A stretch of 64,000 bases of DNA, taken from the NCBI GenBank assembly GCA_001244265.2, contig CDLV01000004.1:372001-436000 (forward strand), written 5' to 3'. The notes under the pieces are model-generated. The model saw only the letters and a list, made by a program, of their open reading frames with translations. It did not search any database and was not told where the DNA came from. The position numbers were made by a program, and so were the translations under genes. The DNA comes from Microbotryum violaceum (taxonomy: Eukaryota). This document shows, piece by piece, positions 1,073 to 57,490 of the stretch. Position 1 is the stretch's first letter. Each line of letters starts with the position of its first letter.

Positions 1073-1950
1073 TCAGTATATTGTTGGTGCGCCTATCGCG
1101 CGTTGAGGTAGATTGCCAAACTTTTTGTAGTCGTTGAGGTGATATCGACTTGTGTGTGGCAAGAGGTATTCAACAAGTTTCCACGCATCTTGACTAGCTT
1201 GACTGTCCGTCCGTTGATCAATTATGCGACGCATTTTTGATCGCAAAGCAAATCGCAAAGCAAATAGATTTACCCGCGCTAAACGTTTCAGATTTTACTC
1301 CATAGATTCAGGCAGATAATGGATGTTCAAATAAAGCACTCACTCATCCTACCTACTGTCAAACTGCAGTTAAGCTCGTCCCAGAGCTTGGGGGTGACCA
1401 ACAGCAAAGCACCCAGATTTCTTCCACTACCCCTTCGGACCCCCCGAGACGCCGGTGAAGTGACAGCAGAACCTTGTCGAGAATGTCCTTAATAACACGC
1501 TTCGCGTAGGGTTCTTCAAACAGCGTGCCCACGGTGAGAAGGAGAGCCGAGATTATTCGTTGGCGCTGGAACAATAGACATAAAACAGAAGCAGGGAACA
1601 AGGTAGTTCACCACTTCTGACCTGCAGACGCAAGATCGCAAGGTGTCCGAGCTTGCTAGCTGACCACGGTGTTCTAGCTGAGGGCCAGGGAAATACGACG
1701 CTGCATTACGCGTAATCAATGCCTTTTCTGCTGAATTGTCAATGGAAGGGGGCGTAAAGTCGGCATCGAGATAGTGGCAGCTTGGTGCTGAGGCGTCAAT
1801 GACTTCGTAGTAGCAATTCTCGTTGTTGGCCGAGTCGCTTGCATACAAGCTACAAGCGCTAGCGTTCATAGGTCGCGCTCGGTGCCGACTACGTATTGCT
1901 TCACGCCTGGGACAGGCAATGTGCCAGGTGGCCACTATATCTCGTCTCGT
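1073..1950 (-). CDS. possible spliced hypothetical gene inside KDZ family 1
   Basis: Protein-like ORF pieces (1073-1258, 1359-1601, 1516-1900) separated by intron-like gaps; no recognisable domain. Confidence 0.25.
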
Positions 1951-2188
1951 GCAAATACTCGATGATCTTGATCTTTGTGTCCCGCAGACAGAATCGCTGG
2001 TTGTAACTTGGTGTGAACCGAGTCGCTGAGGGCATCGGATCGGCTGTGACGCGACGGTGTCGGTGATGCTGTGAGAGGAGAGCGCGCGCGCTCGATGACG
2101 TGAGGTGACGCGAGGCGCGACGTGTACCCCGGGGGTACACAGTGGGACACTTCTCTTTCTCACCCCTAACCCCCACTCCAAGTCCAAC

Positions 2189-3636
2189 ATGGCACCACGC
2201 GCCACCGAGGGCGAGCGCGCCTGGCTCGACATCGACTCGCATCTCATCCGTGACGAGTCCGGCCAATGGCGTGTCCGTTGTGAACTTTGCAACAAACACT
2301 ACAAGCTGCTTGGAGGGTACAGGTCACTCGACGGACCAACTGTAGCACCGGAACATGCACATGAGGCCAAACGAAACCTAAAAAAAAAAATCATTCGTAT
2401 ACACAAGCGCGAGTTCAATCCGTCTACGGTCGACAGTCGGTACAGATGCAACGAGGCGGCGTTTGAGCTGATCGGTACCGACCGTGAGGTCCAAGCGGTG
2501 AGTGCTAAACAGCTTTCCCAGGAGATCAGATACAAAATATGTGGAATTCGGCTAAACCTTTGTTGATGTACCTATCTGATCTGATTAGGGTTTTGGCCAC
2601 CTGAAGAAAAGATACCGCCGGCAGTTGCAGGCCAAGCTTGACATGTTGGAGGCGCCGGGGAAAGCGGACCGTGCGAGGCACGACGAGTGGGCGGCGGAAA
2701 GGGCGCGTCGGCTGGTGATGGAACCCAAAGACATCATGACTCAAGACCCAATCCCCGAGGACGTCGAAAATTTTGACTATGAGGTCCGGGAGGAGATCTA
2801 CTACGTCATGTGGCCTGTTTGGGATGAATGGGCAGGGTACAAAGGGAATGGACGTCTGCCTCGGAGCCTGTTGACCGTGCTCATCCATTGGAGGAACGTG
2901 TTGTTCGATGCATACGATAACCAGAAGCGAAAGAGAGGTGGAGGGAGTGCGAGAGTTTTGAAGGAGTATAGGACCCGCATCCAAGACTTCGACGATATCC
3001 TCGCGCGCATCTTCACCGTCCCCGTCGACATTGCCGCCGAACATGAGGAATCGCGCCTATTCAGTGAAATCCTTTCACCCCTGTACCAAGAGTGCCAACG
3101 CCCCCTCCCTGAGGACGATGTAAGGACCGACGAGGACCAGGAGGGGGAGTGACCGCCTTTTAAGATGGATCTGAAAGGTGTACCGCCCTTTTCTCGGGAA
3201 ACGTGTCCCGGACGATTACCGGGATCAGTTAGAAAGCGAACATCGCACCTGGCAAGCAGCGCTCAGACCATTTGCAACGACGGTGCTCGTCCACGTTCCC
3301 GAACCTCCCAAGCCGCCCACCGATGCGGACCTCGAGCCCGAAAGGAAGAAGATCTGGGACTCCTGGATTGTTGAGTGTGCCCACATGTGGTTGGCGCTGT
3401 CGAGCAAACAGAGGGACGCGTATTGTTGGATGCGCAAGAAGGGGTCCGGCGGAGAGGGCGCCGCGTCGACCTCGGGGGCACGAGAGGAGGACGCGATATC
3501 GGAACAGAGTTCGGCGACCGGCCAACATTCCGACCACGGATCGGCAGCCGGTTCGGAGGCCGAAAGCAACCTCTCCACCCTCTCCGAGCTGACCAGTCTG
3601 AGCGAGCTGGAGCGCGGCCTGGATACTGGGACATGA
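2189..3636 (+). CDS. KDZ cargo protein with N-terminal CxxC...H zinc-finger-like motif and C-terminal HMG-box-like helix; exons 2189-2497, 2589-3119, 3178-3636
   Basis: Two phase-0 GT-AG introns (2498-2588, 3120-3177) join three ORFs in frame (~430 aa). Motifs VRCELCNKHY and IVECAHMWLALSSKQRDAY. Confidence 0.6.
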
Positions 3637-4033
3637 GGCACCATGAGTGTCAATTCACCGGTTAGGCGATGACCATCCCGAATTTTCCGTGAGCGTGTGT
3701 AGCTGTCTAGCTTGTATGTTGTGTTAATGGAGATCCTGCTCTGCAATCATGATTCACTCCGAGGTACAATGCACTCCGAAGGGGGAAATTCTAGTTCAAT
3801 CTTAAACCTTAGGGCAGGGCGTAGATACACTAGAACAGAGTCCTGCGCCTTCGGAAACGAGGAAGCGGTATGCGACGACATGCTTCATCAATTCTAGGAC
3901 ACTCTTAACAAGCACTGTACAACCGGCGTGGCGGTGTGTACCCCCCGGAGGTACACATGACCGGTGCCCTCTCCAGCTGTGTACTCCCGGGGTTCCACGG
4001 CTCAGGTGCGGTCCGTCGCCGACGTCCTTGCTG

Positions 4034-4359
4034 ACTGCACTACAACAAACTTCCACGCATCCGTTCAGAGTTCAGGATGTGTCTGCAGTTACTGACTGGA
4101 ACACCCGCCTGCGACGAAACCGACGAAATATTCGTTTGCTACATCCGACTTGCACTCTGAAAAGCCCGCAAGGCCAATGCACTTCTCTAGCTGAATCTCC
4201 GTTCGAACCACCAAGCAGAGCGAAACTGTACTAGAACAATCTTCCACGCACCCGTTTGAAGCTGAGGATGTGTCTGCAGTTACTGAACGGGATACCCTCC
4301 TGCGACAAGACCGACGAAAGATTTGTTTGCTACATCCGACTTGCACTCTGAAAAGCCCG
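4034..4359. repeat. ~191-bp tandem repeat, left part (continues at 9213-9330 after the copia insertion)
   Basis: Unit ACTGCACTACAACAAACTTCCACGC...TGAAAAGCCCGCAAGGCCAA...GAGCGAA; uninterrupted copy at ~57887-58325. Confidence 0.85.
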
Positions 4360-9234
<4,875 letters not shown>

Positions 9235-10030
9235 CTAACTGAATCTCCGTTCGAACTACCGAGCAGAGCGAAACTGCACTACAACAAACTTCCACGCTCC
9301 CGCTCAAAGCCCAGGAAGTGTCTGAACTTACCGAAAGGATTAACCTCCTGCCGTTGTAGAATCGGACATGTTATTATACAGTGATCTGCCACCGGTGACC
9401 GGCTTGGCACCCCCGGGAGTACACAGCTTTGTCGGCGGCACAGGCCGGGTCCCCCGGGGTTACACTCTTGTCGCGCGCCGACTCTGTGTATGTGTACCCC
9501 GGGAGTACACAGCCCCTACAATGTCCTTGGCCGATGGACCAATATCCGACTACATAAACTATCACGTCAACGGAGTAGGTATGCGGTGACGTATTTCATT
9601 GATTTTTGCTGACATATTATCGCAAGCACTGTACAACGGAGCGCCGTTGGACGCGTCTGGACCCACTTCGGGGTGCTGTTGGAACAGAACAACTACAGCA
9701 ACACCAATCCTCACCGCCCCCCGCCCCCTCTGGCAACGTTCCCAAACCTGAACCTGCAAATGTCAGCACCGATGCGCACCAATTTTTAGTTTTCAACTTA
9801 GCAGAACCTTCAAGCTTGTCACGTACTGCAGTTCGGTGAGTGTGGCCGTGGCGACCGGCTCGTGGGATCGTGGTCGTCAACGCGTCAACGCCTCATTAAG
9901 GCTGACATCCATTTTACTTTTGTGCACTGGCGTCCACATTCTACCATGTGTGATATGGGCCGCATACAAAAAGCAAAGTTCTTCAATAACAAATAATCTA
10001 CAGTCAACAAATGCGCCAAACCATCCCTAG

Positions 10031-13000
10031 CTAGCCCATAGGCTCGTCGAGAATCTCGAGGTCGTCCGAGTCTTCACCCCTTGTCGAGCCTGACTCTCCG
10101 CCGCCCTCCCCGAGCTCAGCATCATCTTCTTCCTCGACCTCCTGCTCCGATAGTGAACCCAAAAGTTCTTCCATTCGTCTTTCATACACGTCATCACGGT
10201 CTCGCTCGGCCTGCTCCGCGGCTGAATCGGGGGTCAGGCCAAGTTCCCTTCGGAATGCGTCGAGGTCGATGGGTGTGTGGCGCACGTCCACGGCAGAGGG
10301 ACCTGATAAGCTGCGGCTCGACTCAGCGATGGGGCTCTGCATTTGAGTATTATTTAGCGTCGAAAGGCGGCGACCGAAATGACGTGGACTACCGCGCGAA
10401 CGGCGCGACACCTGTTTCGCCCGTCCGGCGAAAAGTCCCCGATCAAACCAAATGCCGAGGGCCGCGATTCATGAACTGCGGGTGAACGCGTCCTAAACCA
10501 GACAACCGAGAGATCATCGCGTTCGGCGAGCCGATCCAGACGCTCTTTGAACGAAATCTGCCGGCGTTGAGCACATGCCACACCGCAGTGCCAACCTCGC
10601 CCGCGCCGTCAGTTCCGAGAAGTTTCTTAGCCGCTTCGATCGTTTCTCGGGAACTAATAGAAGGGGCGACGTAAGGTATAGCACCAACACAAAGAAAGGG
10701 TGTGTCCATCTCACCTCGGTCCCCTGCCCATGCCTGAGATACCCTAACAAAGCGAGTGTCCTCATCTTCGAGCCACGCAAGTAGTTGTCGAACCTCAGCT
10801 CCGATCCGGAGAATCTCTTCTTCCGCCCTGGCTTTGAGTAAAACCGCCTTGATCCCTTTCTGAACATCGGTATCAATGCCCAAGGCGCAGTGTCGTGTAC
10901 GAAAAAACCGTCTGGCCAGAAAGCGTCCGTTGGCGACAGAGTCACAAGCGACTTAATTGTGGTAGCGAGCGGTAAGTTGTCCAGAATCTGGGCCGATTGC
11001 TCGGTCGCAGCATTTCGGTAATCCCCGACCGCTTTATTGTACATATTGATTGCCACTTTTACTTTCTTGCTGTGCGTCTGTGAGACGCTGACAAGCTTGC
11101 TGGCTTCGACTTGACCGATTGTCGCGCCGCTTCGTCCCCGACCCATTGAGTCAATTCGTTCTTGACAGCATTGCAATTGGACCGTCGCTTTGTGTAATGC
11201 GCGAAGTTTGACTACGCAGTTGCACAAATGCTGGAAATCTAGGTATGTCATGGGACATCAAACATCAGGTGGCGATACTCATAAAGATAGGACGCGCGCC
11301 GCACCTGAAGCTGCAAGCTCCTTCGTGCGATCGTATTCTTGTTGGTAAGCTCTTAGCTGTTGCTGCAAGCGAGCTTTCGCTTCATCGGAAGCCATTGGAT
11401 CGAATCTGAACACACACTGCCAAGACTCAGTGTCAATTTTACGCCCTCGTCCTCCAATGGGGTTTGACGCGCCGAACGTACAGCCTTTCTTCCATGTGGT
11501 GTAGCCTCTGTACAATGTTAAACAGCTCTAATCGCTCCTTGTCCTCGTTCTCCCGACGTTGACCCGCCGTTGTGGCCGCTTGAGCAGCTCGTTGTAAATC
11601 CCATTGCGCGAGAAGGTCAGACTCGGACCATATTGCCGAAACGTCACTCAGATCAGTTTGTGCCCTTCCAAGCTGATCTTGAGCATTCGAAGGGACCGCA
11701 CAATTAAGTAACGAACACGGCGTGAAAGTGTGGATGGCAGAGCATACCGAGGCTGTCAACACCGTTCTTGTTCATCAGGTCGATGCGACGCGAGATGTTG
11801 ACGCGCCGGTGAGAAGCGCTCGCAGGACGATTGATCGGGATGAGCGATCGGAGCTGACTCCAAACGCGTTCGCATCCCTCCCCATCCGTCAACCCAAAGT
11901 GCTGAATCAGGCGCGGGTTGTACTCAGGCTGGCAGGGCCATTGATGAGCAAAAGCATGAAACACGCTCGTGGCAAACTTCAATCTCGGAAACAGATCGGG
12001 AAGGATACTTCTCTGCAGGCGATCGAAGTACAGTACAGGTCAGCGGCGCCCCAGGGCCAGAAATCTAAGGAACGACGGATCCGCCACTCTTGCTGACCGA
12101 TTGCATGTAGCCGTCCAAATTACACGCAACATCATACAGCACTCCGAGTGTATCGTTGGAAGGGAGTTGGTTCGAAATATGTTGCAGCAGCGATAAGCCG
12201 TAGTAGCGCCTGCCTCATCAAAAACGAGCGTCAGGCCTTGTAAGCGGTTGAAAGAGGAGCTGAGCTGACGAGCTTTTCGCCTGATTGATACAAGTTGACC
12301 ATCTTCAACGCGATATCGTGACGGCAAACACAGGCAACTAGGCCCGTATCGGACTTGCCCCGCGAGATTGTGTCGCACCGCCGTTGGCCGCTTTCCACGA
12401 ATCGGCACAGGCCTTCAAGACGCGAGAGGAAGGGCGTCAGCGCGTTGAAAGGATCGCAGGGGGCGGCTCGCATCAGCGGACCTTTTCTGACTTCTTGCTG
12501 TCGCCACCATCAGCCCTCTCCTTCATCGATTCGAGCTCGCCTTCGCCGATGAAGAGGGCTGGCGTCGACTCCTGAAAATCGTATTTGGCTGAGGTGTCGC
12601 GAGAATGTTGGAAGTTGCCATCCAGAGCGACAAGATGCTGCACTTCGACTCTATGGTGGGCTTGGTTTAGACGCGTCGATCCGTAGCATGCTGGACACTT
12701 ATCCGAGAGAGAATCCGCGACACCGAGGACGAGGTCGCCCAATTCTTGCTCGGATGTCGTGAGAGCCCGAAATTCGTCAAGGGCGCGCTGGAGTTGCGAA
12801 AGCAGCTCCATGTCCTGCGCAAACGATGATAAACATCGGATAATGCTCAATAGCAATCATGACAGGAGGTCGAACTCACGAATTTATGCTGAATCAGGCC
12901 CGGCCGACCCCATCCAGTTTGCTCATAGAAAATGTCGAGCCCGCGAGCTGCTCCATCAACAGGAAACGGCGCGGTGCTCCACCAGAAGTCGAGGAATTGG

Positions 13001-13895
13001 AGAAGTCGAAAGGTGAATGCAGAGCGAGGAGCAGCTGCGGTCGATCCGATTAATCCTATCTGAGCAAGGCGCTCGGCGTACGTAAGGCATGGGCTATCGC
13101 TGCTGGATCTCGGACAAAAAGCGATCGGCACCTCGACCACTGCATTGATTCAACCATTCGACCTCGTCAGCGCAACGTTCGACACAGCGACCCAATTCGC
13201 CTGATTCACATACAGCTTATGAGGTCGTACACGTCAAGCCGTAAAGTGAGGGGACTCTTGCATGAACAAGGCGGCGGCACTTCGCTAGCGACCGAACCCT
13301 GGCACAGCTCCTCGTCCACGTCAATCAAGGGCCGTAGATGACCTTTGACCCCAGCGCAAAACGCGATGTACTGGCGCAGAAGCGCTGGCCGTTCCAAGCG
13401 CCTAAGGCGAGCGTCGTTGAACACGAATTGCTTGTACGTTTCTTGCTTCGACTGACCACGTGTGGCTGATTCGAAACTTTCGACTTGGCGCAGATCAGCC
13501 AGTGATAATCGCTCGGCGATTGCACTATAGTCAGGCGAGGTTGGGAAATGGGATGTTCGATCCGGAGAGTATGGGGCTGGATCGAGTTCGAAGCCACCAC
13601 CGTACTCGCTGTAACGCTCATCATCCCAATCCATCCCACTCGGGTTGGCGGCTTCGTCGAAATCGGCCTGAATCGGAGGGGCCATTGGACGCTGAGGAGA
13701 CGGCGAGCTAGCTTCGCCAAAATCACCGAAGGTTCCTTGCTGGATTTGGCGGGCAGTGTAAGTAACACGGTGTCAGGTTCCGGGGATGTTGGTGCGGAGT
13801 CGGGCGTCCGATCGGAGGCCTTGAGGCCTATAGGAAGGATGCTCCTCAAAGTAGTCCAGACGGACCTTGAAAGGTCTCCATCGATGCCTGCCCAT
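10031..13895 (-). CDS. CxC1 cysteine cluster + KDZ transposase (multi-exon, apparent frameshifts)
   Basis: AERLAQIGLIGSTAAAPRSAFTFRLL (CxC1-like), VALDGNFQHSR, DTGLVACVCRHD, FATSVFHAFAHQWPCQPEYNPRLIQHFGLTDGEGCERVWSQL (KDZ hallmarks). ATG (MGRH...) at 13893-13895. Confidence 0.9.
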
Positions 13896-18026: not shown

Positions 18027-18292
18027 TGTTGCAACAAGGACTAAGAGGTACTCCACGACTCAGCTCCGAGATACACGAGTGAGATGATGAGAATAGCGTG
18101 GCTTTGCAGTAACTAACCTAAGAGGTACTCCACGACTCAGCTCCGAGATACACGAGTGAGATGATGAGAATAGCGTGGAGAAGGAACCCAGAAGGAAAAA
18201 AGACGCAAAGACAAAGATAGGCGCGCGCGCAGAATAAAGTATTAACCAAGACTAATAGCAATGAGTTAGGCTCTCAGACCCCACTTCTAACA
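18027..18292 (-). repeat. copia-2 3' LTR (266 bp) with one extra 77-nt GTTAGT...TAG unit
   Basis: TG...CA; unit 18041-18117 is missing from the right-hand LTR. Confidence 0.9.
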
Positions 18293-19944
18293 CTCCCACC
18301 GGTCAAAGAGACTAACGAGACCATTCCAAGTAGCGCACGAAGTTGATCAAAGCGTTGAAATCCCAAAGGCTTCGTCATAATATCCGCGGCATTGACGTGG
18401 GTAGGGCAGTATTCAAGTTCGACCTCGCCAGAAGCAACCCGTTCTCGAACGAACAAATGAGCAATGTCGAAGTGCTTGGTTCGCATGTGATCGACCGGAT
18501 CCTTGGCGATCTGGATGCATGCGGCGTTGTCCTCTTGAATGATAGTAGGCTGTGCTTGTGGAATGCCGACATCACCAGCCAAACGACGGAGCCAGATTGC
18601 TTCACGAGTGGCTGAGGATGCAGAGAGGATTTCGGCTTCGGTAGTGGATGTAGCGATCGTAGATTGTTGCTTTGACTGCCAGGAGATAACGCCGCCAGCG
18701 AGCATTGATGCATAGGCTCCCACCGATCTGTGAGATTCCGGGTCATCCGCAAACGAGGCATCGGAGTAGACCATCAATCGAGTTGTGGAACTGTTTCGAT
18801 AAAGAATTCCCAAATCGATGGTGCTGTTGAGGTAGCGAAATATACGCTTGACCGCAGCCCAATCGTCGACAGTTGGACAGGAGTTCTTTTGAGCAACGGC
18901 ACGAACAGCAATCGCGATATTGGGTCGACATCGAGTGGACGCGTGCTGCAGGGAACCCACAGCCGATTGGTACAATGACACATCGGCAAACGGAGTAGCA
19001 TCGATTCGAAGCGAGGGGCGATCGTCCATGGGCGTGACTGCACGGCGCTTGGATGGAGAAGCGAAATCGAACTTCTCGAGCATAGTGCGGACATACTTGC
19101 TTTGGTGAACGAGGATGTAATATTTGGTGCGATGAATTTCGAAGCCCAGGAAGTAGGAGACGGGTCCGAGACGCTTGAGCTGGAAGGCCTTGTGAAGCGA
19201 TCCGAGCTCGGAGTCCAAGAAGGACTGATTGTTGGACGCGATGAGACCGTCGTCAACATAGAGAGTGATGATAGCAAACGAAGTGCCCGAATGTTTGATG
19301 TAGAGGCAAGCATCGGCAGTTGCCCTCATGTAGCCTCGAGACACCATGAGATCGTTGACGGCTCGATACCATTCACGGGGCGCCTGTTTGGTGCCATACA
19401 TGGAACCCACGAGCTTGAGGCACTTGCCAGGGGATTGAGGACGATTCCATCCTTTTGGGTATTGAACATAGACATCCTCGGTCATCTTGCCGTTGAGAAA
19501 GGCGCAGTCAAAATCGAACTGTTCGAGATACAGGCCCTGAGCAGCAGCCAGAGCAATCAAGAACAAAATCGTCGAAGAACGAGCGACAGGAGCGTAGGTG
19601 TCATGGTAGTTGATGCCTGGGCGTTGAGCAAATCCTTGAGCAACGAGACGAGCTTTGAAACGAATGATTTTGCCGTTTGCATCGCGCTTGATACTGTAGA
19701 CCCAGATCGTGCCGAGTACCCGAATTCCTTCGTGCCACATGACTTCCTGAAAGACTCCATGATGATCGAATTGTAGAAGTTCTGAGACCATTGCCGCACT
19801 CCAATGATTGCGATAGGATGACTTCATGGCTTCCTCGAATGTCTTGGGTATCTCGATGTCTTCTTCGGCGAACACGGCAGCACAGTAGGCATCGTAGGAA
19901 AGCTTGTCGTGGAACATGGGTGGAGTATCCAAGACATCGACCAT
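18274..19944 (-). CDS. copia reverse transcriptase + RNase H fragment
   Basis: [35 protein letters not shown]. Confidence 0.95.
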   Translation of the reverse strand: MVDVLDTPPMFHDKLSYDAYCAAVFAEEDIEIPKTFEEAMKSSYRNHWSAAMVSELLQFDHHGVFQEVMWHEGIRVLGTIWVYSIKRDANGKIIRFKARLVAQGFAQRPGINYHDTYAPVARSSTILFLIALAAAQGLYLEQFDFDCAFLNGKMTEDVYVQYPKGWNRPQSPGKCLKLVGSMYGTKQAPREWYRAVNDLMVSRGYMRATADACLYIKHSGTSFAIITLYVDDGLIASNNQSFLDSELGSLHKAFQLKRLGPVSYFLGFEIHRTKYYILVHQSKYVRTMLEKFDFASPSKRRAVTPMDDRPSLRIDATPFADVSLYQSAVGSLQHASTRCRPNIAIAVRAVAQKNSCPTVDDWAAVKRIFRYLNSTIDLGILYRNSSTTRLMVYSDASFADDPESHRSVGAYASMLAGGVISWQSKQQSTIATSTTEAEILSASSATREAIWLRRLAGDVGIPQAQPTIIQEDNAACIQIAKDPVDHMRTKHFDIAHLFVRERVASGEVELEYCPTHVNAADIMTKPLGFQRFDQLRALLGMVSLVSLTGGSVRSGV

Positions 19945-20626
19945 GATAGCCGAAATGATGGGAAGTATATTTTCCGGAGGTTGAGGTCGACGACGAGAAC
20001 CAGCAGGAAGGATGTTGGAAGGATCAACATTCTTGAATTGGCCAGGATTTGGACCAGTGCGAACGATGGCGTAACCTTCACGAGGAGCGAGAGCGACTTC
20101 CGCCTCACCGTCGAGTGGTTCTTCTGCGTCATGATAGTTATCAGGTCCATCGTCGAGTCCATCGTTGTCGTCATTGTCGTCATCCTTACGAGGAACGACT
20201 GCAAGATACCCCCCTGTTGACCAACTCCAATTGGAACCACCGGAGGAGGCTGTGGATCCGGCAGATGTTGCCGTCTACACCAACTTCACCTGTTGTGGAT
20301 CCAACTTTGCCGAATCCACAGCCTCCTCCGGTGGTTCCAATTGGAGTTGATCAACAGGGGGGTATCTTGCAGTCGTTCCTCGTAAGGATGACGACAATGA
20401 CGACAACGATGGACTCGACGATGGACCTGATAACTATCATGACGCAGAAGAACCACTCGACGGTGAGGCGGAAGTCGCTCTCGCTCCTCGTGAAGGTTAC
20501 GCCATCGTTCGCACTGGTCCAAATCCTGGCCAATTCAAGAATGTTGATCCTTCCAACATCCTTCCTGCTGGTTCTCGTCGTCGACCTCAACCTCCGGAAA
20601 ATATACTTCCCATCATTTCGGCTATC

Positions 20627-22297
20627 ATGGTCGATGTCTTGGATACTCCACCCATGTTCCACGACAAGCTTTCCTACGATGCCTACTGTGCTGCCGTGTT
20701 CGCCGAAGAAGACATCGAGATACCCAAGACATTCGAGGAAGCCATGAAGTCATCCTATCGCAATCATTGGAGTGCGGCAATGGTCTCAGAACTTCTACAA
20801 TTCGATCATCATGGAGTCTTTCAGGAAGTCATGTGGCACGAAGGAATTCGGGTACTCGGCACGATCTGGGTCTACAGTATCAAGCGCGATGCAAACGGCA
20901 AAATCATTCGTTTCAAAGCTCGTCTCGTTGCTCAAGGATTTGCTCAACGCCCAGGCATCAACTACCATGACACCTACGCTCCTGTCGCTCGTTCTTCGAC
21001 GATTTTGTTCTTGATTGCTCTGGCTGCTGCTCAGGGCCTGTATCTCGAACAGTTCGATTTTGACTGCGCCTTTCTCAACGGCAAGATGACCGAGGATGTC
21101 TATGTTCAATACCCAAAAGGATGGAATCGTCCTCAATCCCCTGGCAAGTGCCTCAAGCTCGTGGGTTCCATGTATGGCACCAAACAGGCGCCCCGTGAAT
21201 GGTATCGAGCCGTCAACGATCTCATGGTGTCTCGAGGCTACATGAGGGCAACTGCCGATGCTTGCCTCTACATCAAACATTCGGGCACTTCGTTTGCTAT
21301 CATCACTCTCTATGTTGACGACGGTCTCATCGCGTCCAACAATCAGTCCTTCTTGGACTCCGAGCTCGGATCGCTTCACAAGGCCTTCCAGCTCAAGCGT
21401 CTCGGACCCGTCTCCTACTTCCTGGGCTTCGAAATTCATCGCACCAAATATTACATCCTCGTTCACCAAAGCAAGTATGTCCGCACTATGCTCGAGAAGT
21501 TCGATTTCGCTTCTCCATCCAAGCGCCGTGCAGTCACGCCCATGGACGATCGCCCCTCGCTTCGAATCGATGCTACTCCGTTTGCCGATGTGTCATTGTA
21601 CCAATCGGCTGTGGGTTCCCTGCAGCACGCGTCCACTCGATGTCGACCCAATATCGCGATTGCTGTTCGTGCCGTTGCTCAAAAGAACTCCTGTCCAACT
21701 GTCGACGATTGGGCTGCGGTCAAGCGTATATTTCGCTACCTCAACAGCACCATCGATTTGGGAATTCTTTATCGAAACAGTTCCACAACTCGATTGATGG
21801 TCTACTCCGATGCCTCGTTTGCGGATGACCCGGAATCTCACAGATCGGTGGGAGCCTATGCATCAATGCTCGCTGGCGGCGTTATCTCCTGGCAGTCAAA
21901 GCAACAATCTACGATCGCTACATCCACTACCGAAGCCGAAATCCTCTCTGCATCCTCAGCCACTCGTGAAGCAATCTGGCTCCGTCGTTTGGCTGGTGAT
22001 GTCGGCATTCCACAAGCACAGCCTACTATCATTCAAGAGGACAACGCCGCATGCATCCAGATCGCCAAGGATCCGGTCGATCACATGCGAACCAAGCACT
22101 TCGACATTGCTCATTTGTTCGTTCGAGAACGGGTTGCTTCTGGCGAGGTCGAACTTGAATACTGCCCTACCCACGTCAATGCCGCGGATATTATGACGAA
22201 GCCTTTGGGATTTCAACGCTTTGATCAACTTCGTGCGCTACTTGGAATGGTCTCGTTAGTCTCTTTGACCGGTGGGAGTGTTAGAAGTGGGGTCTGA
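20627..22297 (+). CDS. copia reverse transcriptase + RNase H fragment (mirror copy)
   Basis: Translation identical to 18274-19944. Confidence 0.95.
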   Translation: MVDVLDTPPMFHDKLSYDAYCAAVFAEEDIEIPKTFEEAMKSSYRNHWSAAMVSELLQFDHHGVFQEVMWHEGIRVLGTIWVYSIKRDANGKIIRFKARLVAQGFAQRPGINYHDTYAPVARSSTILFLIALAAAQGLYLEQFDFDCAFLNGKMTEDVYVQYPKGWNRPQSPGKCLKLVGSMYGTKQAPREWYRAVNDLMVSRGYMRATADACLYIKHSGTSFAIITLYVDDGLIASNNQSFLDSELGSLHKAFQLKRLGPVSYFLGFEIHRTKYYILVHQSKYVRTMLEKFDFASPSKRRAVTPMDDRPSLRIDATPFADVSLYQSAVGSLQHASTRCRPNIAIAVRAVAQKNSCPTVDDWAAVKRIFRYLNSTIDLGILYRNSSTTRLMVYSDASFADDPESHRSVGAYASMLAGGVISWQSKQQSTIATSTTEAEILSASSATREAIWLRRLAGDVGIPQAQPTIIQEDNAACIQIAKDPVDHMRTKHFDIAHLFVRERVASGEVELEYCPTHVNAADIMTKPLGFQRFDQLRALLGMVSLVSLTGGSVRSGV

Positions 22298-22467
22298 GAG
22301 CCTAACTCATTGCTATTAGTCTTGGTTAATACTTTATTCTGCGCGCGCGCCTATCTTTGTCTTTGCGTCTTTTTTCCTTCTGGGTTCCTTCTCCACGCTA
22401 TTCTCATCATCTCACTCGTGTACCTCGGAGCTGAGTCGTGGAGTACCTCTTAGTCCGTGTTGCAACA
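22279..22467 (+). repeat. copia-2 3' LTR (189 bp)
   Basis: Follows PPT-like GGTGGGAG; TGTTAG...TGCAACA. Confidence 0.9.
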
Positions 22468-23662: not shown

Positions 23663-24347
23663 TTTTGGGTTTAAATATTGTCGCGCTTGACGTGGACGAC
23701 GGTGATCGTGAAAAGAGGAGAACAGTGAAGCGTACGCAAGGGGATCAAGCCGAACGGAGCAGGCTCACCGATGATGAGAGCGCCAATTACACGATGCGCT
23801 CGGACCATCTGAGGCCCGATCGACCGAAAGAGCAGACTTCAGATCGCTGTAGCTCCACCCACAGCTCATGAGAGCTCCCGCCACTTGGGTTATGTCAGTT
23901 TTAGAGCATAAAGAAAAATAGTGTCCCTCACTTTTGCAGGAATGCGCCTAGTTGCCAAGATACAGAGAACCACCCCAAAATGGCCCTGAAATTTCGGAGG
24001 GCAACTGGGCCAAGCGCGCCGATAACTCGTAAGCCCCTCCCAGAGGGAGGGCTTAGTTGAGCTTACTCTCAAGCGCTCTCAAGCGCGGCGCGCGACAGCT
24101 CGCGACAGTGGTTCGACGTGAGCCCCTGCCTCAGACTCGAGAGCTCATTCTCGCTACGAGCCGGGGACGCGTGACGGTCAGCACCTCATCCTTTGGAAGC
24201 TTGAAAGTCTACGGAGCGGGTGAGTCGTTCTTTCGGCCTTTTTCGAGCCAACCAACGCACGCCCGAGGCCCCCGCTACCGCTCTCTGGGGTTTCAGTTGC
24301 CGCCAGCAGGACCCCCGAAAGCCCAGCCGGAGGCGCAATTTTTTTTT

Positions 24348-25680
24348 GAGAACAGGACGAAAATGCCCTCGCTTCTTTTCATGAGGACAGAAATGCCCTT
24401 CTCTAAAGGACCAAAATGCCCTCGGATTCTCGACTTCTGTAACACTTGATATATCAGCTCATAACCAAGAGGGTAGCTTCTTGTAGTCGTTGTGATCATC
24501 GCCGTATACTCAGAATCCCCAGAGATGCCGTGAGAATTCAGTTATCACGGTCGCAAAGTCAACGTCAGGGCCCTATCGCGACTGAAGCGAGTCCAAGTCG
24601 AAAGCGAGCGATGAGTATAGACCGAGTGGATTCCATATGAAACAGGTCAGCAGTAGTAGCATTGACAGTCTTGACACCTTATGCTCAGATTCAAATGGTT
24701 TATCTATCTATCGCATGTAACTCGGTTGTGTCCGGGGCCTTTGCAGAGACCACAGATCGTTTCGCGCTTGGACCTGTCGTCCGCACCCCGGATCCTGCGT
24801 TTGATCGGACGTCGTGTACGCTTGGAGAGATGTGACGGAATGATAATGACACCCTCTTCTTCGCCAGTTGAGTCACTATCGTCCACTTCACCATGACCTC
24901 ATGCCGCTCACGAGGAACACGATGCAGCTTCCATTCGGCCCGAGATGGAACAGGTTGGAGCGGTGTCGCGTAAGTCTGCTCTTGCTGTCGCCGGTGTGCA
25001 GCAGCGATCGGTGACTGTGGGCTTCATTGAAGAAAATGATGGTCCAAACACTGAATTCTTCTTTGGGGATAGCAGTGGCAGAGAAGGAGCACGGAGGATC
25101 TTGGACACTTGCTCACGACGCGTGTCAGACTTGCGAATGTCGAGCTGAAACTGGTGATCAAGCGCATATTGATGGCCGCATCTGTGAGCTCCTTCTTTTC
25201 GTAGAGACTTTCCCCCTCCCTGAAAAAATGTTCCATTGTCGAAAGTCGGTGGTGACTTCGATGTTGGGTCGAGAATGCGGAAGGTGGCCAACGTCGATTC
25301 GCGAACTCGCGCGCCTCGACGCGTCGAGGATCGACGAGGCCCCCTGACTTTGCGACCGTGATAACTGAATTCTCACGGCATCTCTGGGGATTCTGAGTAT
25401 ACGGCGATGATCACAACGACTACAGGAAGCTACCCTCTTGGTTATGAGCTGATATATCAAGTGTTACAGAAGTCGAGAATCCGAGGGCATTTTGGTCCTT
25501 TAGAGAAGGGCATTTCTGTCCTCATGAAAAGAAGCGAGGGCATTTTCGTCCTTTTCTCAAAAAAATTGCGCCTCCGGCTGGGCTTTCGGGGTCCTGCCGG
25601 CGGTAACTGAAACGCCAGAGAGCGGTAGCGGGGCTTTACGTCCTTTCGCTATCTTTCGAGGGCATTTTGGTCCTTTTATC
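24348..25680 (-). mobile_element. Mutator-like (MULE) non-autonomous derivative inserted in a poly-T tract
   Basis: TIRs GAGAACAGGACGAAAATGCCCTCG / CGAGGGCATTTTGGTCCTTTTATC; poly-T on both sides; C-terminal transposase-like remnant RPIKRRIR...CGLCKGPGHNRVTC (24704-24886). Confidence 0.7.
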
Positions 25681-30085: not shown

Positions 30086-32243
30086 TATTTCCAAGTGACG
30101 GCTGGAATTACCACGCGCTTGGGTAAAATCAGCGCGCGCGTGGACATAACACCCTGGAAATACCCAGGCGCGTGGTAAAACCAGGCGCCCTGGAGATACC
30201 AGGCTGTCGGGTATTACCCAAGCTCGCTTTTGTAAATACCAGACGAGACCTCGGGTATTCCTGTAAGGTATGCGCCTCTGATGTGCATAAAATACGATCT
30301 GTCATTCTTGACCACTAGACTAAAAGCAAGTCGTAACTAGAACTCGGCAGTTCTAGCTACTCAGAGGCTACTTATAGGGCTGTTCTGTAAGGCATCCCCT
30401 TACAATTCCCCTCTAAGGGTGGAATTCCCCGCTCTCTACGGCCCTCAGTGTTTGGCCTACCCTGAGCAGCCTACGGCATGACTTTGGGCCCGTTTGCCTT
30501 CGCTTCGAGACGCGATGCTCGCGCTTGAACAAGTCACTTAGTACTAGCCATCTTCGGTAATCACTTGAGTTGAGTGGCTGTGAGGGATTAGGCCGATTAG
30601 ATATTGAAAGGGCGCAAGTTCCGTTCCGCTTCACTTCGGTCCGAGATTGGAGCATAGCACGACAACATCATCCCATGTTGAACGATGCCTTCGATTGATT
30701 ATTGCCGCTCACCAACATGAACTTGACGATCGCCGAGCTCCTCGCCTTCGATGTCGCTCCCGCCGACGCGTCTCTTCACATCGAGTTGTCCAAAGACGAG
30801 CTCACCCACTACTCGACCTTATCATCTACTCGAAGCCGTTGAGAAGGCAAACAGCTTCTCACCACCAATCGTGCGTCTACCAAGCTCAACTATCGAAATT
30901 TTGGTCTAAGCTCACGCGTGTTTGGTTCTACACAGCCCACACACTTGAAACTTCCGCCTCAAGTTGTCGATGCTCGCGATACCAATTTCTCGCTGAACTG
31001 GCCAACCTGATTGCCCATCAAGCTGCTAATAAGTGTAGCCACCTCAAGCTGTTCTACTCAAGGGAGGCCGATGGAATCGAGCGACCCAACTCGCGGAGAG
31101 GCAGGCGTAGGGGTTAGCAATACAGAGGAAGGATGCAGTACAACACATTCATGCGTCTTTAAAGGGTTGGTACAGTCCATGGGACCATCTCGCTGCGAAG
31201 ACATGGCGGGCACGACGAGGAGCTTGAACGAGATTCAGAAGAACGCCTACATTGAGGACGGCCGCATTCAAGTGAGTTGTTGCTGAATTTGGGAACGAAG
31301 GCAGCTGGATCTAATGTTTTGCCGGTCCTATACTTTTAGGAAAAGCTCCCTGAGAGAGACAAGCAGTACGGAGCGCTAGCACAACGCAATCCTCATTTTG
31401 GATCGCTTGACGGAGCTGTAACCGCTGCCACACCATTGGCGATTGGATCTCTGATCTGCTTTGGCCTCAAGTGTGGCATGCATTCACTCAGCTGTGATCA
31501 AACTGTTTATGGAGAAGAAGCGCTGTCTATCGGAATTGGTACATTGTTTTGAGTGGCAGTTGAGCTGTGAAGTTCTCGTTTGGCACAAGTCTTGTGTCCT
31601 ACAGTGCGATGCATCTACAGCAAAGTGACAACAAATCACTGCAACCAAGACACGCTCGCCTCGTTGGTTCTGCTCTCAAATGTCGTCGTACAGGAGCTTC
31701 GCCTCATCAAGAAAACATGCTATTCCACACACCTCATTGATGGCCCTATGCCGTTCCGCATGATTGATGGTCGACAGGTCATTGAGTCATTAGGCCCGTC
31801 AACGACTACATATCGTTCAACCACGGACCTTACCACATGTTACCCGGACGACCGCCTAATGAGCACGAGCGCACATGCCGAGCAAAGGTTTGCCGCCCTT
31901 CGGAGCGTGCCCGGCCTGCGAGATGCCGCCGGCAGAACCTCTACAAATCGCACAAATGCCACCGCGGAAACAAGGAGCTCAACTTCAGCAAAAAGGAAGT
32001 CTGACAACGAAGCAGCGAGCCAGCCAGCAAAGCAAGGAAGGCTTATTTGAAGCCTGGAGCCACGCGCAACACCAGCCGAAGCGACGCGCGCCGCCGCGGC
32101 GCGCCCGCAAACGCTCGGCACGCGTTTTCGAGGACTTTTGAGCGATTTTTGGAGCATGTAGAACACGTTTTGATAATATTTCCGAGGCGCATGCGAAATT
32201 TTGACATTTTGGGTCCAAAATAGGCCAAAAAACTTTGACAAAA

Positions 32244-40814: not shown

Positions 40815-43800
40815 CAGGACCCCCGAAAGCCCAGCCAGAGGCGCATGCGGAAAAACGCCCTTTTTTGGCCTTTTTGTCAAAGTTTTTTGGCCTATTTTGG
40901 ACCCAAAATGTCAAAATTTCGCATGCGCCTCGGAAATATTATCAAAACGTGTTCTACATGCTCCAAAAATCGCTCAAAAGTCCTCGAAAACGCGTGCCGA
41001 GCGTTTGCGGGCGCGCCGCGGCGGCGCGCGTCGCTTCGGCTGGTGTTGCGCGTGGCTCCAGGCTTCAAATAAGCCTTCCTTGCTTTGCTGGCTGGCTCGC
41101 TGCTTCGTTGTCAGACTTCCTTTTTGCTGAAGTTGAGCTCCTTGTTTCCGCGGTGGCATTTGTGCGATTTGTAGAGGTTCTGCCGGCGGCATCTCGCAGG
41201 CCGGGCACGCTCCGAAGGGCGGCAAACCTTTGCTCGGCATGTGCGCTCGTGCTCATTAGGCGGTCGTCCGGGTAACATGTGGTAAGGTCCGTGGTTGAAC
41301 GATATGTAGTCGTTGACGGGCCTAATGACTCAATGACCTGTCGACCATCAATCATGCGGAACGGCATAGGGCCATCAATGAGGTGTGTGGAATAGCATGT
41401 TTTCTTGATGAGGCGAAGCTCCTGTACGACGACATTTGAGAGCAGAACCAACGAGGCGAGCGTGTCTTGGTTGCAGTGATTTGTTGTCACTTTGCTGTAG
41501 ATGCATCGCACTGTAGGACACAAGACTTGTGCCAAACGAGAACTTCACAGCTCAACTGCCACTCAAAACAATGTACCAATTCCGATAGACAGCGCTTCTT
41601 CTCCATAAACAGTTTGATCACAGCTGAGTGAATGCATGCCACACTTGAGGCCAAAGCAGATCAGAGATCCAATCGCCAATGGTGTGGCAGCGGTTACAGC
41701 TCCGTCAAGCGATCCAAAATGAGGATTGCGTTGTGCTAGCGCTCCGTACTGCTTGTCTCTCTCAGGGAGCTTTTCCTAAAAGTATAGGACCGGCAAAACA
41801 TTAGATCCAGCTGCCTTCGTTCCCAAATTCAGCAACAACTCACTTGAATGCGGCCGTCCTCAATATAGGCGTTCTTCTGAATCTCGTTTGTTGTGAGCGC
41901 TCGGGCCACCTGGCCACCTCCAGTCCAGCGAGAGCTCCTTGCGGTGCCCGCAATGTCTTCGAAGCGAGATGGTCCCATGGACTGCACCAACCCTTTCAAG
42001 ACGCGTGAATGTACTGCACTGCGTCCTTGCTCTGTATTGCTAATCTCTAAGCCTGCCTCTCCGCGACTTGTGTCGCTCAACTCCATTGGCCTCCCTTTGA
42101 GTAGAACAGCCCTGAGGTGGCTACACTCATGAGCAGCTCGATGGGCAATCAAGCTGGCCCAGTTCAGCGAGAAACTGGTATCGCGAGCATCAACAAGAGG
42201 CGGAAGTTTCAAGTGTGTAGGCTGTATAGTACCGAAGATGCATGAGTTCAGATCTAAATTACGCTAGTTAAGCTTGGTAGACGCACGATTGGACGTAATG
42301 AGCTGTTTGCCTTCTCAATGGTCTCTAGTACGTAGCGTTCCTCAGCTTGTCCGTCAGCTTCGTCGTAAGCGATTTGCACGTTGAGTCTGGCCAATGAGAA
42401 AGGAGAACATTATGAGGTCCGGATTAAAAGGTAGAAGAACGCTTCAGCGCACGTGGCACAGTGAAGTGTCCACTCACAAGGCTGCCTCAACGTCAAAGTC
42501 CAGAGATGCAAGCGATCGAATCGCACGGTCGACAGCTTCCCGCTCGTTTGGGTCCAGTTTCACAACACCTTGGCACGTGCTACGCCGCATGCCATCAAGA
42601 GCAGAATCCAGCAATTCGGTGCGGAGCAGACCTTGATCTTCCTTGGTAGGATGATGGTCTTCAAGATCTACTTCAAGTGGGCATGGTATCCCGTGTCAAA
42701 TACGCATCACTTGTAGACCAAGTCGTTCGGAACTACCTTGAACTGTTGTGCCATGGGCGAGTACGTCCTCGACGAGTATGTCAGGTTGCGGACCTTGGTT
42801 GCGTCTGTTGGACGCGATGCGTTGCACAGGCTCCCACATGTGTAAACCTGAAAGCAGTTCACGCGCAGTATTTGCCGCTGCAAAACTGGTGAGAGAGATG
42901 TCGCCATCACTGGGGTACATTCACATCGCAACAAGGTCAAGATCGTCGAGGTCGTTGTAGGTATGATGGTAGCCTTGACGTGATCCCGCCGCCTCGGTCT
43001 TAAACTTCCTCATGAGCTCCAAGAGTGCAGTGACTTTGCCAGTTGCCTGTCGGATTCTAGCCGGGTTAACTACTGTATAGATTAGATTGATTTATGAAGA
43101 ACGCACCTGCAAGAACTCTAGAGCATCGAACTCCTTTACAATCTGGCGTATACCCCGAAGAAGTGCTCCACCATTTCTGTGCCATGCCGCCAGGGAATGA
43201 ACGATTCCTTCGGCCAAAAATCTCGGTAGTTGCGGACGAGAGCAATCGTTGAGTCAACCATCTTCCTGACCCCATCAAGCGTTTCTTTGGCGAGGAACGA
43301 GTGAGAGCTAGATCCGGGGCGACTTCGGACAAAGTCATACCACGCCTCGAACGTATATCTGACAACGAGCAACATCCTGATACGTTCAAGGGGCTGAAGC
43401 GACCGGTTCTGGATGGCATCGTGTAACTCGCCACATAAGAAGAGATATACGACCGCATCGGGGTCGAGTTTTTTGTCTTCAGCGAGTTCGGTTACGAGTT
43501 CGAGCGTCGCCTTGGAGAATGCCCGATGTGTTGCATTGTCGTCTTGACGATCACGCCCGACCGCATCACGACGAGACAGAGTACGACGCGACTCCAGTCC
43601 GCCCAGGATGGTGAGCATATCCTGGTAGGCAATGCATCCGAGACCACCGAACAGCAATCTTGCTCCAGAGTCGATAGCGTTCCTCAGACATTGGGCCAGG
43701 TGTTTTTCGTCCCGACAGAAGACTATCGGCGTTCCCGCGACGTTGACGGTCGATATAGTGATCTCAGGAAACACTCCGTCCGGATCTGGGGAGGGGAGGG

Positions 43801-54316: not shown

Positions 54317-56044
54317 TGACTGCGGGGACGCTCGCGGGTGGTTCAGCGATGCGCGGCCTGCCTCCTCGTTTTGGGAAACTTGTGCGGCCCGCGACGTTTG
54401 GCGATCGTGAGCGGAAGGCTAAGTAGTATTTGGCAAACCTGCCGCGTCAAAGACAATACCCGTGCTGTCGGAACTGTTTCCTCCTTGTTCGACCATACTT
54501 GCGATGCTTGCGAGATTGTTGCTTGTTGGCGGAGCTAGATATGGGCCATCGATGCGTCCAGGATCGGGGAACGTGGGACGGTAAACTGGTTGATTGGACG
54601 AAGCAGATCCCGGAGACGATGGATAGTTGTACGACGCAGGGTTCGAGATGGCCGTTACGCCAGCGGAAGTGGACGCTGGATCGGGTGCACGACGGTGTAA
54701 CGTCAGACCAGACCGATGCTATACGCGATCGACGCGACGGCCACCCACGGACCCGAATAGTCGATATATGCGGACTGATAGGGAGTCCAAGGCAAGGTGC
54801 ACGACTCGTACCTAGAGGCAGCTTATGAACCTATGTGTCAGATGTGATCGTGAGCCGGTAGTCCAGGCAGAGCACCCGTGTCGATCGGCGGCAAACATAC
54901 TGCTGTTCATCGCCGGAGCGCCAAACGTTGGCTGCGATTTGGAAGGTGGTTGATGGGATTGACTCATCATGACAGGAGCAGCAAGACTATGACTGATCCG
55001 GTATTTCGAAGTGGGCGTTCGTTTCAGACTGTCGCAAAGTCACGGATGCTCGTTTCTAGTTCGTTACTTCGTATACGTAGTAGGGGGCGATTGAGCAAAG
55101 CAAAAGAATGGGCGGTATGCGCGAGCGCGACGCGTCGCGGCCCTCTCCAGCGTCTCCGGAGTCGTGACGCGTCGACGTCCCGGCCAGTCCCGGCCCCAAT
55201 TGTTCCGCGCGACCCGTGCCGAATCACGTGTTTGAGGTAGCGCTCTTGTTCAGCTTGCAGAGGACAATAGTAACTCTCAAAAAATATGCAAAAATCCGAA
55301 TGCACTATTACTCGCCGACTGTGCCTTTGTTTCCAGGTTTTCCACCGAGTTATAGTGGGAGTGAACGTCTCGGTAGCTCGACATCGAGGTGGGCATACCT
55401 CAACGGGGCCAAGTCGGCGCCCTGGGGTAGCAAGGGTACACCCGCTGGGCAGTGACTTGGAAGGCACGTGATGGGGCGCTGCGCGCGCGCCTGTTTAGGC
55501 GTATTTTTTATGTCTGCCCGAGGTGGTTCTAGCTGAGGGCCAGGGAAATACGACGCTGCATTACGCGTAATCAATGCCTTTTCTGCTGAATTGTCAATGG
55601 AAGGGGGCGTAAAGTCGGCATCGATATAGTGGCAGCTTGGTACTGAGGCGTCAATGACTTCGTAGTAGCAATTCTCGTTGTTGGCCGAGTCGCTTGCATA
55701 CAAGCTACAAGCGCTAGCGTTCATAGGTCGCGCTCGGTGCCGACTACGTATTGCTTCACGCCTGGGACAGGCAATGTGCCAGGTGGCCACTATATCTCGT
55801 CTCGTGCAAATACTCGATGATCTTGATCTTTGTGTCCCGCAGACAGAATCGCTGGTTGTAACTTGGTGTGAACCGAGTCGCTGAGGGCATCGGATCGGCT
55901 GTGACGCGACGGTGTCGGTGATGCTGTGAGAGGAGAGCGCGCGCGCTCGATGACGTGAGGTGACGCGAGGCGCGACGTGTACCCCCGGGGGTACACAGTG
56001 GGACACTTCTCTTTCTCACCCCTAACCCCCACTCCAAGTCCAAC

Positions 56045-57490
56045 ATGGCACCACGCGCCACCGAGGGCGAGCGCGCCTGGCTCGACATCGACTCGCATCT
56101 CATCCGTGACGAGTCCGGCCAATGGCGTGTCCGTTGTGAACTTTGCAACAAACACTACAAGCTGCTTGGAGGGTACAGGTCACTCGACGGACCAACTGTA
56201 GCACCGGAACATGCACATGAGGCCAAACGAAACCTAAAAAAAAAAATCATTCGTATACACAAGCGCGAGTTCAATCCGTCTACGGTCGACAGTCGGTACA
56301 GATGCAACGAGGCGGCGTTTGAGCTGATCGGTACCGACCGTGAGGTCCAAGCGGTGAGTGCTAAACAGCTTTCCCAGGAGATCAGATACAAAATATGTGG
56401 AATTCGGCTAAACCTTTGTTGATGTACCTATCTGATCTGATTAGGGTTTTGGCCACCTGAAGAAAAGATACCGCCGGCAGTTGCAGGCCAAGCTTGACAT
56501 GTTGGAGGCGCCGGGGAAAGCGGACCGTGCGAGGCACGACGAGTGGGCGGCGGAAAGGGCGCGTCGGCTGGTGATGGAACCCAAAGACATCATGACTCAA
56601 GACCCAATCCCGAGGACGTCGAAAATTTTGACTATGAGGTCCGGGAGGAGATCTACTACGTCATGTGGCCTGTTTGGGATGAATGGGCAGGGTACAAAGG
56701 GAATGGACGTCTGCCTCGGAGCCTGTTGACCGTGCTCATCCATTGGAGGAACGTGTTGTTCGATGCATACGATAACCAGAAGCGAAAGAGAGGTGGAGGG
56801 AGTGCGAGAGTTTTGAAGGAGTATAGGACCCGCATCCAAGACTTCGACGATATCCTCGCGCGCATCTTCACCGTCCCCGTCGACATTGCCGCCGAACATG
56901 AGGAATCGCGCCTATTCAGTGAAATCCTTTCACCCCTGTACCAAGAGTGCCAACGCCCCCTCCCTGAGGACGATGTAAGGACCGACGAGGACCAGGAGGG
57001 GGAGTGACCGCCTTTTAAGATGGATCTGAAAGGTGTACCGCCCTTTTCTCGGGAAACGTGTCCCGGACGATTACCGGGATCAGTTAGAAAGCGAACATCG
57101 CACCTGGCAAGCAGCGCTCAGACCATTTGCAACGACGGTGCTCGTCCACGTTCCCGAACCTCCCAAGCCGCCCACCGATGCGGACCTCGAGCCCGAAAGG
57201 AAGAAGATCTGGGACTCCTGGATTGTTGAGTGTGCCCACATGTGGTTGGCGCTGTCGAGCAAACAGAGGGACGCGTATTGTTGGATGCGCAAGAAGGGGT
57301 CCGGCGGAGAGGGCGCCGCGTCGACCTCGGGGCACGAGAGGAGGACGCGATATCGGAACAGAGTTCGGCGACCGGCCAACATTCCGACCACGGATCGGCA
57401 GCCGGTTCGGAGGCCGAAAGCAACCTCTCCACCCTCTCCGAGCTGACCAGTCTGAGCGAGCTGGAGCGCGGCCTGGATACTGGGACATGA
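56045..57490 (+). CDS. second copy of the zinc-finger/HMG-like cargo gene (homopolymer frameshifts)
   Basis: Near-identical to 2189-3636; single-base indels at ~56610 and ~57330. Confidence 0.55.

Follow-up and report, generated by a model that had tools for sequence, protein, structure and literature searches.

A repeated intron-like unit in the LTRs of Microbotryum copia and gypsy retrotransposons: a candidate self-renewing intron

Elements that are copied through RNA are expected to lose the introns they splice. The locus analysed here raises the question of why a long terminal repeat (LTR) should carry a short unit with the signals of a spliceosomal intron, and how such a unit could be kept. 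The window, the whole stretch of 64,000 nucleotides analysed (Microbotryum violaceum, assembly GCA_001244265.2, contig CDLV01000004.1, positions 372,001 to 436,000 of the forward strand), contains two families of copia retrotransposons, copia-1 and copia-2. One host gene of the window shares 94% identity with Microbotryum proteins. A sequence-only reading had described a 77-nt unit in the left copia-2 LTR. The unit was found as described: a 61-nt repeat (R) is followed by a 16-nt spacer, GTTAGTTACTGCAAAG, and by a second R that is 100% identical to the first, after which the LTR continues with TCC (Table 1). Three further claims of that reading held as well. The right copia-2 LTR (22279-22467) is shorter by exactly these 77 nt, the junction TAG/GTTAGTT is the same in copia-1 and copia-2, and the repeat bodies of the two families largely differ, aligning no better than shuffled sequences.

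The sequence TAG/GTTAGT...TAG of the copia-2 unit provides a GT donor with a host-like consensus and a YAG acceptor. The block CTGAGTCGTGG at the candidate branch site is kept in the sister family F9, and the 22 nt preceding R1 are 86% pyrimidine. Folding of the copia-2 unit gave no stable RNA structure (z +1.2). The predicted branch A, at position 42 of R, is changed to G in three copia-2 insertions (L010, L016, L104/L180), where only the last R of the 5' LTR has the change. Four copia-2 copies, separate from these or overlapping with them, carry single changes in the donor hexamer.

Table 1. Positions of the copia-1 and copia-2 features in the window
Feature	Positions	Strand	Remarks
copia-2 3' LTR, two-R form (U3-R1-spacer-R2-U5)	18027..18292	-	starts TG after polypurine tract, ends CAACA
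copia-2 U3, 114 nt, putative promoter	18179..18292	-	GC-run and pyrimidine tract abutting R1
copia-2 R1, 61 nt, putative exon 1 (transcription start to donor)	18118..18178	-	ends CTCTTAG; start site predicted
copia-2 spacer, 16 nt, unique; 5' part of candidate intron	18102..18117	-	donor GTTAGT at 18112-18117
TGCAA, candidate poly(A) signal	18104..18108	-	TGNAA motif; resembles AUGHAH as given in the extract of PMC3990503
copia-2 R2, identical copy of R1; 3' part of candidate intron	18041..18101	-	acceptor TAG at 18041-18043
CTGAG, candidate branch site	18059..18063	-	A at -20; imperfect consensus
copia-2 U5 tail, 14 nt	18027..18040	-	
Left arm: 3' half of copia-2 pol (RVT_2)	18274..20263	-	domain match
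Fold-back junction loop, 44 nt	20264..20307	.	native copia-2 internal sequence
Right arm: inverted copy of the same pol half	20308..22278	+	2 mismatches in 1971 nt
copia-2 3' LTR, one-R form	22279..22467	+	lacks the spacer, hence the donor and TGCAA
copia-1 5' LTR, three R copies, then PBS	8751..9212	-	units 8893-8989 and 8796-8892 (97 nt each, GTTAGT...TAG)
copia-1 3' LTR, one-R form	4360..4638	-	target-site duplication of the element: CGGGC
End of first copia-1 spacer, CTCC	8973..8976	-	one case

The two copia-2 LTRs had been taken as the pair of one element, which they are not. They belong to a 2146-nt inverted repeat (18118-20263 against 20308-22453) with the RT-RNaseH half of copia-2 in each arm. 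The RVT_2 domain was found in both arms, which hold the RT half only, and both LTRs lie directly behind a polypurine tract, with flanks unlike each other. Both are 3' LTRs, one from each arm of a fold-back inverted duplication, and their difference is therefore uninformative on splicing. In addition, any deletion between two R copies also removes the spacer and one R, so that the loss of 77 nt alone is no evidence of splicing; the idea that the right LTR is a spliced and reverse-transcribed copy was rejected as undecidable. The left arm is 100% identical over 1971 nt to the copia-2 3' half at locus L161, ~55 kb away, whose 5' LTR bears the flank ATACG that also flanks the left LTR of the window. 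This match of five bases, together with the identical 3' half, suggests a local rearrangement behind the fold-back. That the palindrome is an assembly artefact is unlikely, as its arms differ by the 77-nt unit, four substitutions and their flanks. Other copia-2 copies have the direct LTRs, primer-binding site (PBS), polypurine tract and target-site duplication of a Ty1/copia element.

The copia-1 element of the window has direct LTRs, a PBS, a polypurine tract, a target-site duplication and a complete domain order, gag-rve-RVT_2 (copia-type RT, integrase before RT). It carries three R copies in its 5' LTR and one in its 3' LTR, with a unit of 97 nt. The first copia-1 spacer ends in CTCC, as does the sequence upstream of R1, where other copies have CATC or CATT; this single case may mark where an RNA with a slightly longer 5' end was copied over the spacer. 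The window also holds a ~6.8 kb repeat present twice (1671-4359 plus 9209-13301, and 55526-62284; 98-99.6% identical), one copy of which is split by copia-1 and contains 191-nt internal repeats, as well as long inverted repeats (30827-32243 and 40872-42330) flanking a thioredoxin-domain gene region and a 290-nt terminal-inverted-repeat element at 24270-24561 and 25345-25633.

We then surveyed the number of R copies in the two window families at 30 loci per family, taken from the 40 scored among 123 and 260 candidates. LTRs with one, two or three R copies occur in both families, among 5', 3' and solo LTRs. Counted by exact patterns, 101 copia-1 LTRs were one-R and 63 multi-R; the corresponding numbers for copia-2 were 67 and at least 23. 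Among copia-1 pairs, assigned by distance and with four chains of three or more LTRs set aside, the 5' and 3' states (1/1, 1/2+, 2+/1, 2+/2+) numbered 18, 7, 6 and 11 and were concordant (p 0.027), suggesting that the state of the unit is partly set at insertion. The same table for copia-2, drawn from the 31 of 40 regions with two LTRs, some of which lack matching target sites, read 16, 7, 7 and 1 (p 0.64), and this independence points to loss of the unit in DNA after insertion. The unit number ranges from one to four, and the two LTRs of an insertion can differ in it even where the target-site duplication is intact. The state of the unit is thus in part fixed at insertion and in part altered afterwards in DNA, and for this reason the absence of a unit cannot be taken as evidence of splicing. 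In the gypsy family G3, only 2 of the 23 LTRs examined are one-R. At G000:C2:3810064-3863932 one-R copia-1 LTRs follow one another in tandem ~4 kb apart (12 listed), suggesting that whole elements are arrayed there in the same way.

To the loci of the window families we added 20 copia and 20 gypsy regions, and a repeat finder blind to splice signals, run over all loci collected, returned 84 repeat groups, many of the same family. The same design was found in 18 LTR variants, of which 14 are copia-type and four belong to three Ty3/gypsy families; the LTR status of F9-F12 was assigned by context only. In order, the LTR reads U3, R1, then a unit made of a GT donor, a spacer with the motif TGNAA and an R2 ending in YAG, and finally U5, with R2 a copy of R1. 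Units are 50-97 nt long and their unique spacers 13-37 nt. RT identity between the copia families tested is 35-66%. Of the 153 pairs formed by the R bodies, only 5 align better than shuffled sequences.

When the repeat boundary was set by a blind rule, identity ended at AG/GT in 15 of the 18 variants, compared with 0 of 24 control tests made on 12 other repeats and 0 of 18 variants on the opposite strand; the last count ruled out an antisense reading, in which GTTAGT is the branch motif ACTAAC of the other strand. The three misses all fit on inspection: one copy has three units, another has a damaged donor, and in the third case the repeat had been extended too far. With the junction motif supplied all 18 variants fit, and the identity of R1 and R2 stops exactly at AG in 12 of them. 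The sequence-only reading had asked for donor and acceptor signals at the repeat boundary in most families with LTR repeats, which is what these counts give, blind or by inspection. Its argument that conserved signals on unrelated bodies speak for function rather than slippage is supported, the more so as the set includes Ty3/gypsy families. Two self-priming gypsy families and several of the copia regions sampled showed no R-spacer-R repeat. A metagenome scan for the elements in other organisms returned 29 loci, most of them AT-rich and 27-46% identical (two 62%), and none of the 24 examined shows the design, most being short or lacking a whole LTR. In family F6 (L108:1159-1228, L062) a second, diverged 70-nt segment, GTGAGC...GAGCAG, lies between R copies, and LTRs mix both segments in arrays; this diverged segment may be an earlier unit that has ceased to be overwritten.

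The signals themselves resemble those of host introns. Donors include GTTAGT, GTGAGT, GTATGT, GTCAGT and similar hexamers, the acceptor is YAG in all variants save one with AAG, and it is followed by GT in only 5 of 18. Branch-like motifs have the form CT[AG]A[CT]; 10-40 nt before the acceptor the match to CTRAY is perfect in F3, F5, F7, F8 and G1-G3, and by the rule used none was found in F10 and F12. Five introns of one gene in the window, compared by eye, have the same kinds of donors, branch motifs and lengths, as does one GT-AG intron found joined in an RNA-like sequencing run. Furthermore, R1 and R2 change together between subfamilies with CTRAY kept: G3 has CTGAT in one subfamily and CTAAC in another, and one G1 LTR has CTAAC in both R copies in place of CTGAC. 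The LTRs of F7 and F8 end in ATA, and the first G of the PBS serves as the last G of the acceptor, so that the acceptor is complete only at the 5' LTR; splicing there would restore the PBS exactly.

In 14 of the 18 variants the first base of R1 is a purine and a pyrimidine tract stands directly before it. Two gypsy families of the self-priming type (L141, L144, L145, L148), whose PBS is complementary to a stretch of their own LTR and which lack R-spacer-R, have this stretch (13 and 11 nt) 0-2 nt after such a tract. In Tf1, which primes itself in this way, the PBS-complementary stretch marks the start of the RNA. The position of the tract in these two families, read by the Tf1 rule, indicates that R1 probably begins at the transcription start site. 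In G1-G3 (L142, L146, L147, L149, L150, L153, L154, L159) a run of 8-10 T stands at the expected PBS, just after the 5' LTR; we guess that a poly(A) tail primes these elements, an idea for which a literature search returned nothing.

The motif TGNAA, chosen after inspecting the spacers, is present in 13 of the 14 copia spacers, the exception by inspection being F4. With F4 left out it occurs in 13 of 13, against a mean of 1.2 and a maximum of 6 in 5000 shuffles. Its position is held relative to R2 (7-14 nt before it) but varies relative to the donor (4-24 nt after it), and it is absent from all four gypsy spacers. In the basidiomycete Cryptococcus, an extract of the published work gives the poly(A) motif as AUGHAH, ~20 nt upstream of the cut (PMC3990503). 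TGNAA resembles this motif, which may not be that of Microbotryum, and is a candidate poly(A) signal; if the Cryptococcus spacing applied, the RNA would end a few bases into R2, before the acceptor.

To learn about inheritance of the repeats we examined 43 multi-R copia-1 insertions, obtained from 52 rows after three one-R rows were dropped and six identical pairs merged. The U3 haplotype is associated with position 67 of R1 (r2 0.65) and U5 with the same position of the last R (r2 0.45). R1 and the last R are hardly associated with each other (r2 0.11, p 0.067), and U3 and U5 still are (r2 0.38). These values depend on six insertions with the minor U3 haplotype, and related copies are not independent. 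With R1 tied to U3 and the last R to U5, the break left by strand transfer would lie between R1 and R2, as rebuilding of the unit needs, and not at the start of R1. This is weak evidence for rebuilding, as a transcription start at R2 would yield the same pattern.

Sequencing contigs were available from four runs, of which X5 is RNA-like and X1, X6 and X11 DNA-like. On L179:1-7250 the contigs of these runs show no joint at the copia-2 or G3 LTR unit, where a spliced 5' end has the same sequence as an unspliced tail and cannot appear as a joint. The copia-2 R is longer than the word length, and rare forms are dropped from contigs. No poly(A) was seen among the 21 loose ends listed, with 73 more outside the list. 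Depth in X5 is 63 over the copia-2 U3 and 880 from place 291 on, a measure that cannot rank parts of a gene and that was not used as evidence. In X5 only, a contig skips a 110-nt segment, GTACGC...GCTGAC...CAG, inside G3 (L179:6087-6196, minus strand), over the protease motif. This joint indicates that the host spliceosome probably acts on G3 transcripts, and the skip may correspond to a Gag-only spliced RNA.

We consider it probable, with real room for doubt, that the unit is a short spliceosomal intron built to survive reverse transcription. Transcription would start at the first base of R1, making R1 exon 1. Splicing would remove the unit from the 5' end of the RNA, so that the transcript gains an intron and loses a premature poly(A) signal. 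At the 3' end, the RNA would be cut ~20 nt beyond TGNAA, at a point just inside R2 and ahead of the acceptor, so that it keeps the donor and spacer. Minus-strand strong-stop DNA, a copy of R1-U5, would then land on the stub of R2 and rebuild U3-R1-spacer-R2-U5, a step with which the copia-1 linkage partly agrees. In each cycle R1 would overwrite R2, which would keep the two copies identical from the start site to the splice site. Landing on R1, or a later deletion between the repeats, would give a one-R LTR free of intron and poly(A) signal, and misregister or slippage would give three or four units. One-R LTRs are the majority in the window families and occur also as concordant pairs; hence rebuilding would be leaky or the unit dispensable.

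Retroviruses package a genomic RNA that keeps the intron and translate a spliced mRNA. The Microbotryum unit could likewise be a real intron that is spliced only in the translated mRNA, or its donor could bind U1 and silence the 5' poly(A) site, and neither would involve any rebuilding. Either possibility would account for the presence of a donor and a poly(A)-like motif and for the unit being retained, as seen in G3, and G3 appears to make internally spliced RNA. In the copia spacers the donor precedes TGNAA, the order that U1 control of the foamy virus type would have; such suppression of a 5' LTR poly(A) site is described for foamy virus in an extract of PMC3694450. Under this explanation there is no reason why, in every family, the 3' part of the intron should match exon 1 exactly and co-evolve with it. 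A further prediction is that R1, spacer and R2 go together with U5, whereas in copia-1 R1 goes with U3. We regard it as unlikely.

In avian and mouse mammary tumour retroviruses the poly(A) signal lies upstream of the start site. If transcription of the Microbotryum elements likewise began at R2, then R1 and the spacer would belong to U3 and the splice-like signals would be relics. The linkage of U3 with R1 and of the last R with U5 fits this equally well, as does the location of TGNAA just before R2. The pyrimidine tract, however, precedes R1 and not R2, and the identity of R1 and R2 together with AG/GT and branch motifs in 18 variants would have no explanation, which makes a start at R2 highly improbable in our judgement. 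The least probable of the alternatives is neutral slippage of reverse transcriptase, or tandem duplication across a chance AGGT as in the model of Rogers, followed by gain and loss through recombination. It accounts for unit numbers that vary within one insertion and for one-R copies, including the right LTR of the window, and an extract on that model reports that duplication across AGGT can yield a working intron (PMC3265369). The unique spacer, however, does not come from simple duplication and could not be regained once lost, the acceptor lacks a following GT in 13 of 18 variants, and none of the control repeats ends at AG/GT. As the origin of the design, slippage or duplication is strongly disfavoured.

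The reading as a rebuilt intron has partial counterparts in known systems, as far as the extracts of the sources cited here go. Penelope-like elements carry a 5'-UTR intron in a pseudo-LTR, whose retention is left unexplained in the extract (PMC8557442). Such elements keep a short spliceosomal intron near the start site, in a terminal repeat, through retrotransposition, as the Microbotryum elements would, but they are not LTR retrotransposons, no exon-copy tail is described for them in that extract, and they do not use strong-stop transfer. Identity with this group (PLE-type RT, GIY-YIG endonuclease, pseudo-LTR) was rejected, as the Microbotryum copia elements have RVT_2 with rve and true LTRs. 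Foamy virus has its major splice donor in the LTR, where binding of U1 suppresses the poly(A) site and RNA structure switches this suppression off at the 3' LTR (PMC3694450, in extract). The donor upstream of an LTR poly(A) signal and the ending of RNA from identical LTRs only at the 3' end are alike; the Microbotryum LTR differs in holding a whole candidate intron, with branch site and acceptor, whose tail repeats exon 1. In retroviral vectors engineered to carry a split intron (Ismail et al. 2000, as summarised in the review PMC3182074) a donor is copied from the 3' LTR to the 5' LTR, where it assembles an intron. Those vectors are artificial, work for one round and are built to stop further copying, whereas the Microbotryum layout would renew itself in each cycle.

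In the Rogers model an intron is born by tandem duplication across AGGT, and such introns likewise repeat the neighbouring exon and sit at AG/GT (PMC3265369, in extract). They have no unique spacer, need AGGT at both ends and are one-off events whose copies diverge, whereas the Microbotryum copies stay identical; pure duplication of this kind was rejected on the spacers and on the bases after the acceptor. With Ty1/copia elements (Pseudoviridae) the window families share gag, a protease-region barrel, integrase, RVT_2, TG...CA LTRs, a polypurine tract, the PBS GGTTATGAG and 5-bp target-site duplications; they differ in the LTR module, for which the extracts of an LTR survey (PMC3601003) and of two papers on Microbotryum transposable elements (PMC10502011, PMC4469406) contain no description. 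The main text of the 2023 paper among these (PMC10502011), as available, contains neither 'intron' nor 'splic'. No paper describing the design was found in the open literature, a scope that excludes supplements, Repbase entries and subscription papers. Among the closest known cases considered here (Penelope-like elements, foamy virus, split-intron vectors and duplication-born introns), none has a natural, renewable intron made from a copy of its exon.

We incline, if only slightly, to the wider view that copia and gypsy elements of Microbotryum share, by convergence or by exchange of LTRs, a natural self-renewing intron. In it, exon 1 would be duplicated as the 3' end of the intron with a poly(A) signal hidden inside, and one LTR sequence would undergo splicing at the 5' end of the RNA, bring about termination at its 3' end and be put together again during first-strand transfer. 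As LTR pairs in fungi of the Microbotryum type differ by whole units, the finding matters for LTR-based dating, and the design could inform expression vectors for basidiomycetes. In Cryptococcus, according to the extract of PMC3744415, removal of introns strongly lowers mRNA for most genes tested, which may not hold for Microbotryum. If the reading is true, an element copied through RNA could meet an intron requirement of its host and solve the poly(A) problem of two identical LTRs together. Both the conflict over intron loss and premature polyadenylation in the 5' LTR would find a new answer in a layout by which every round of reverse transcription restores the spliced intron.
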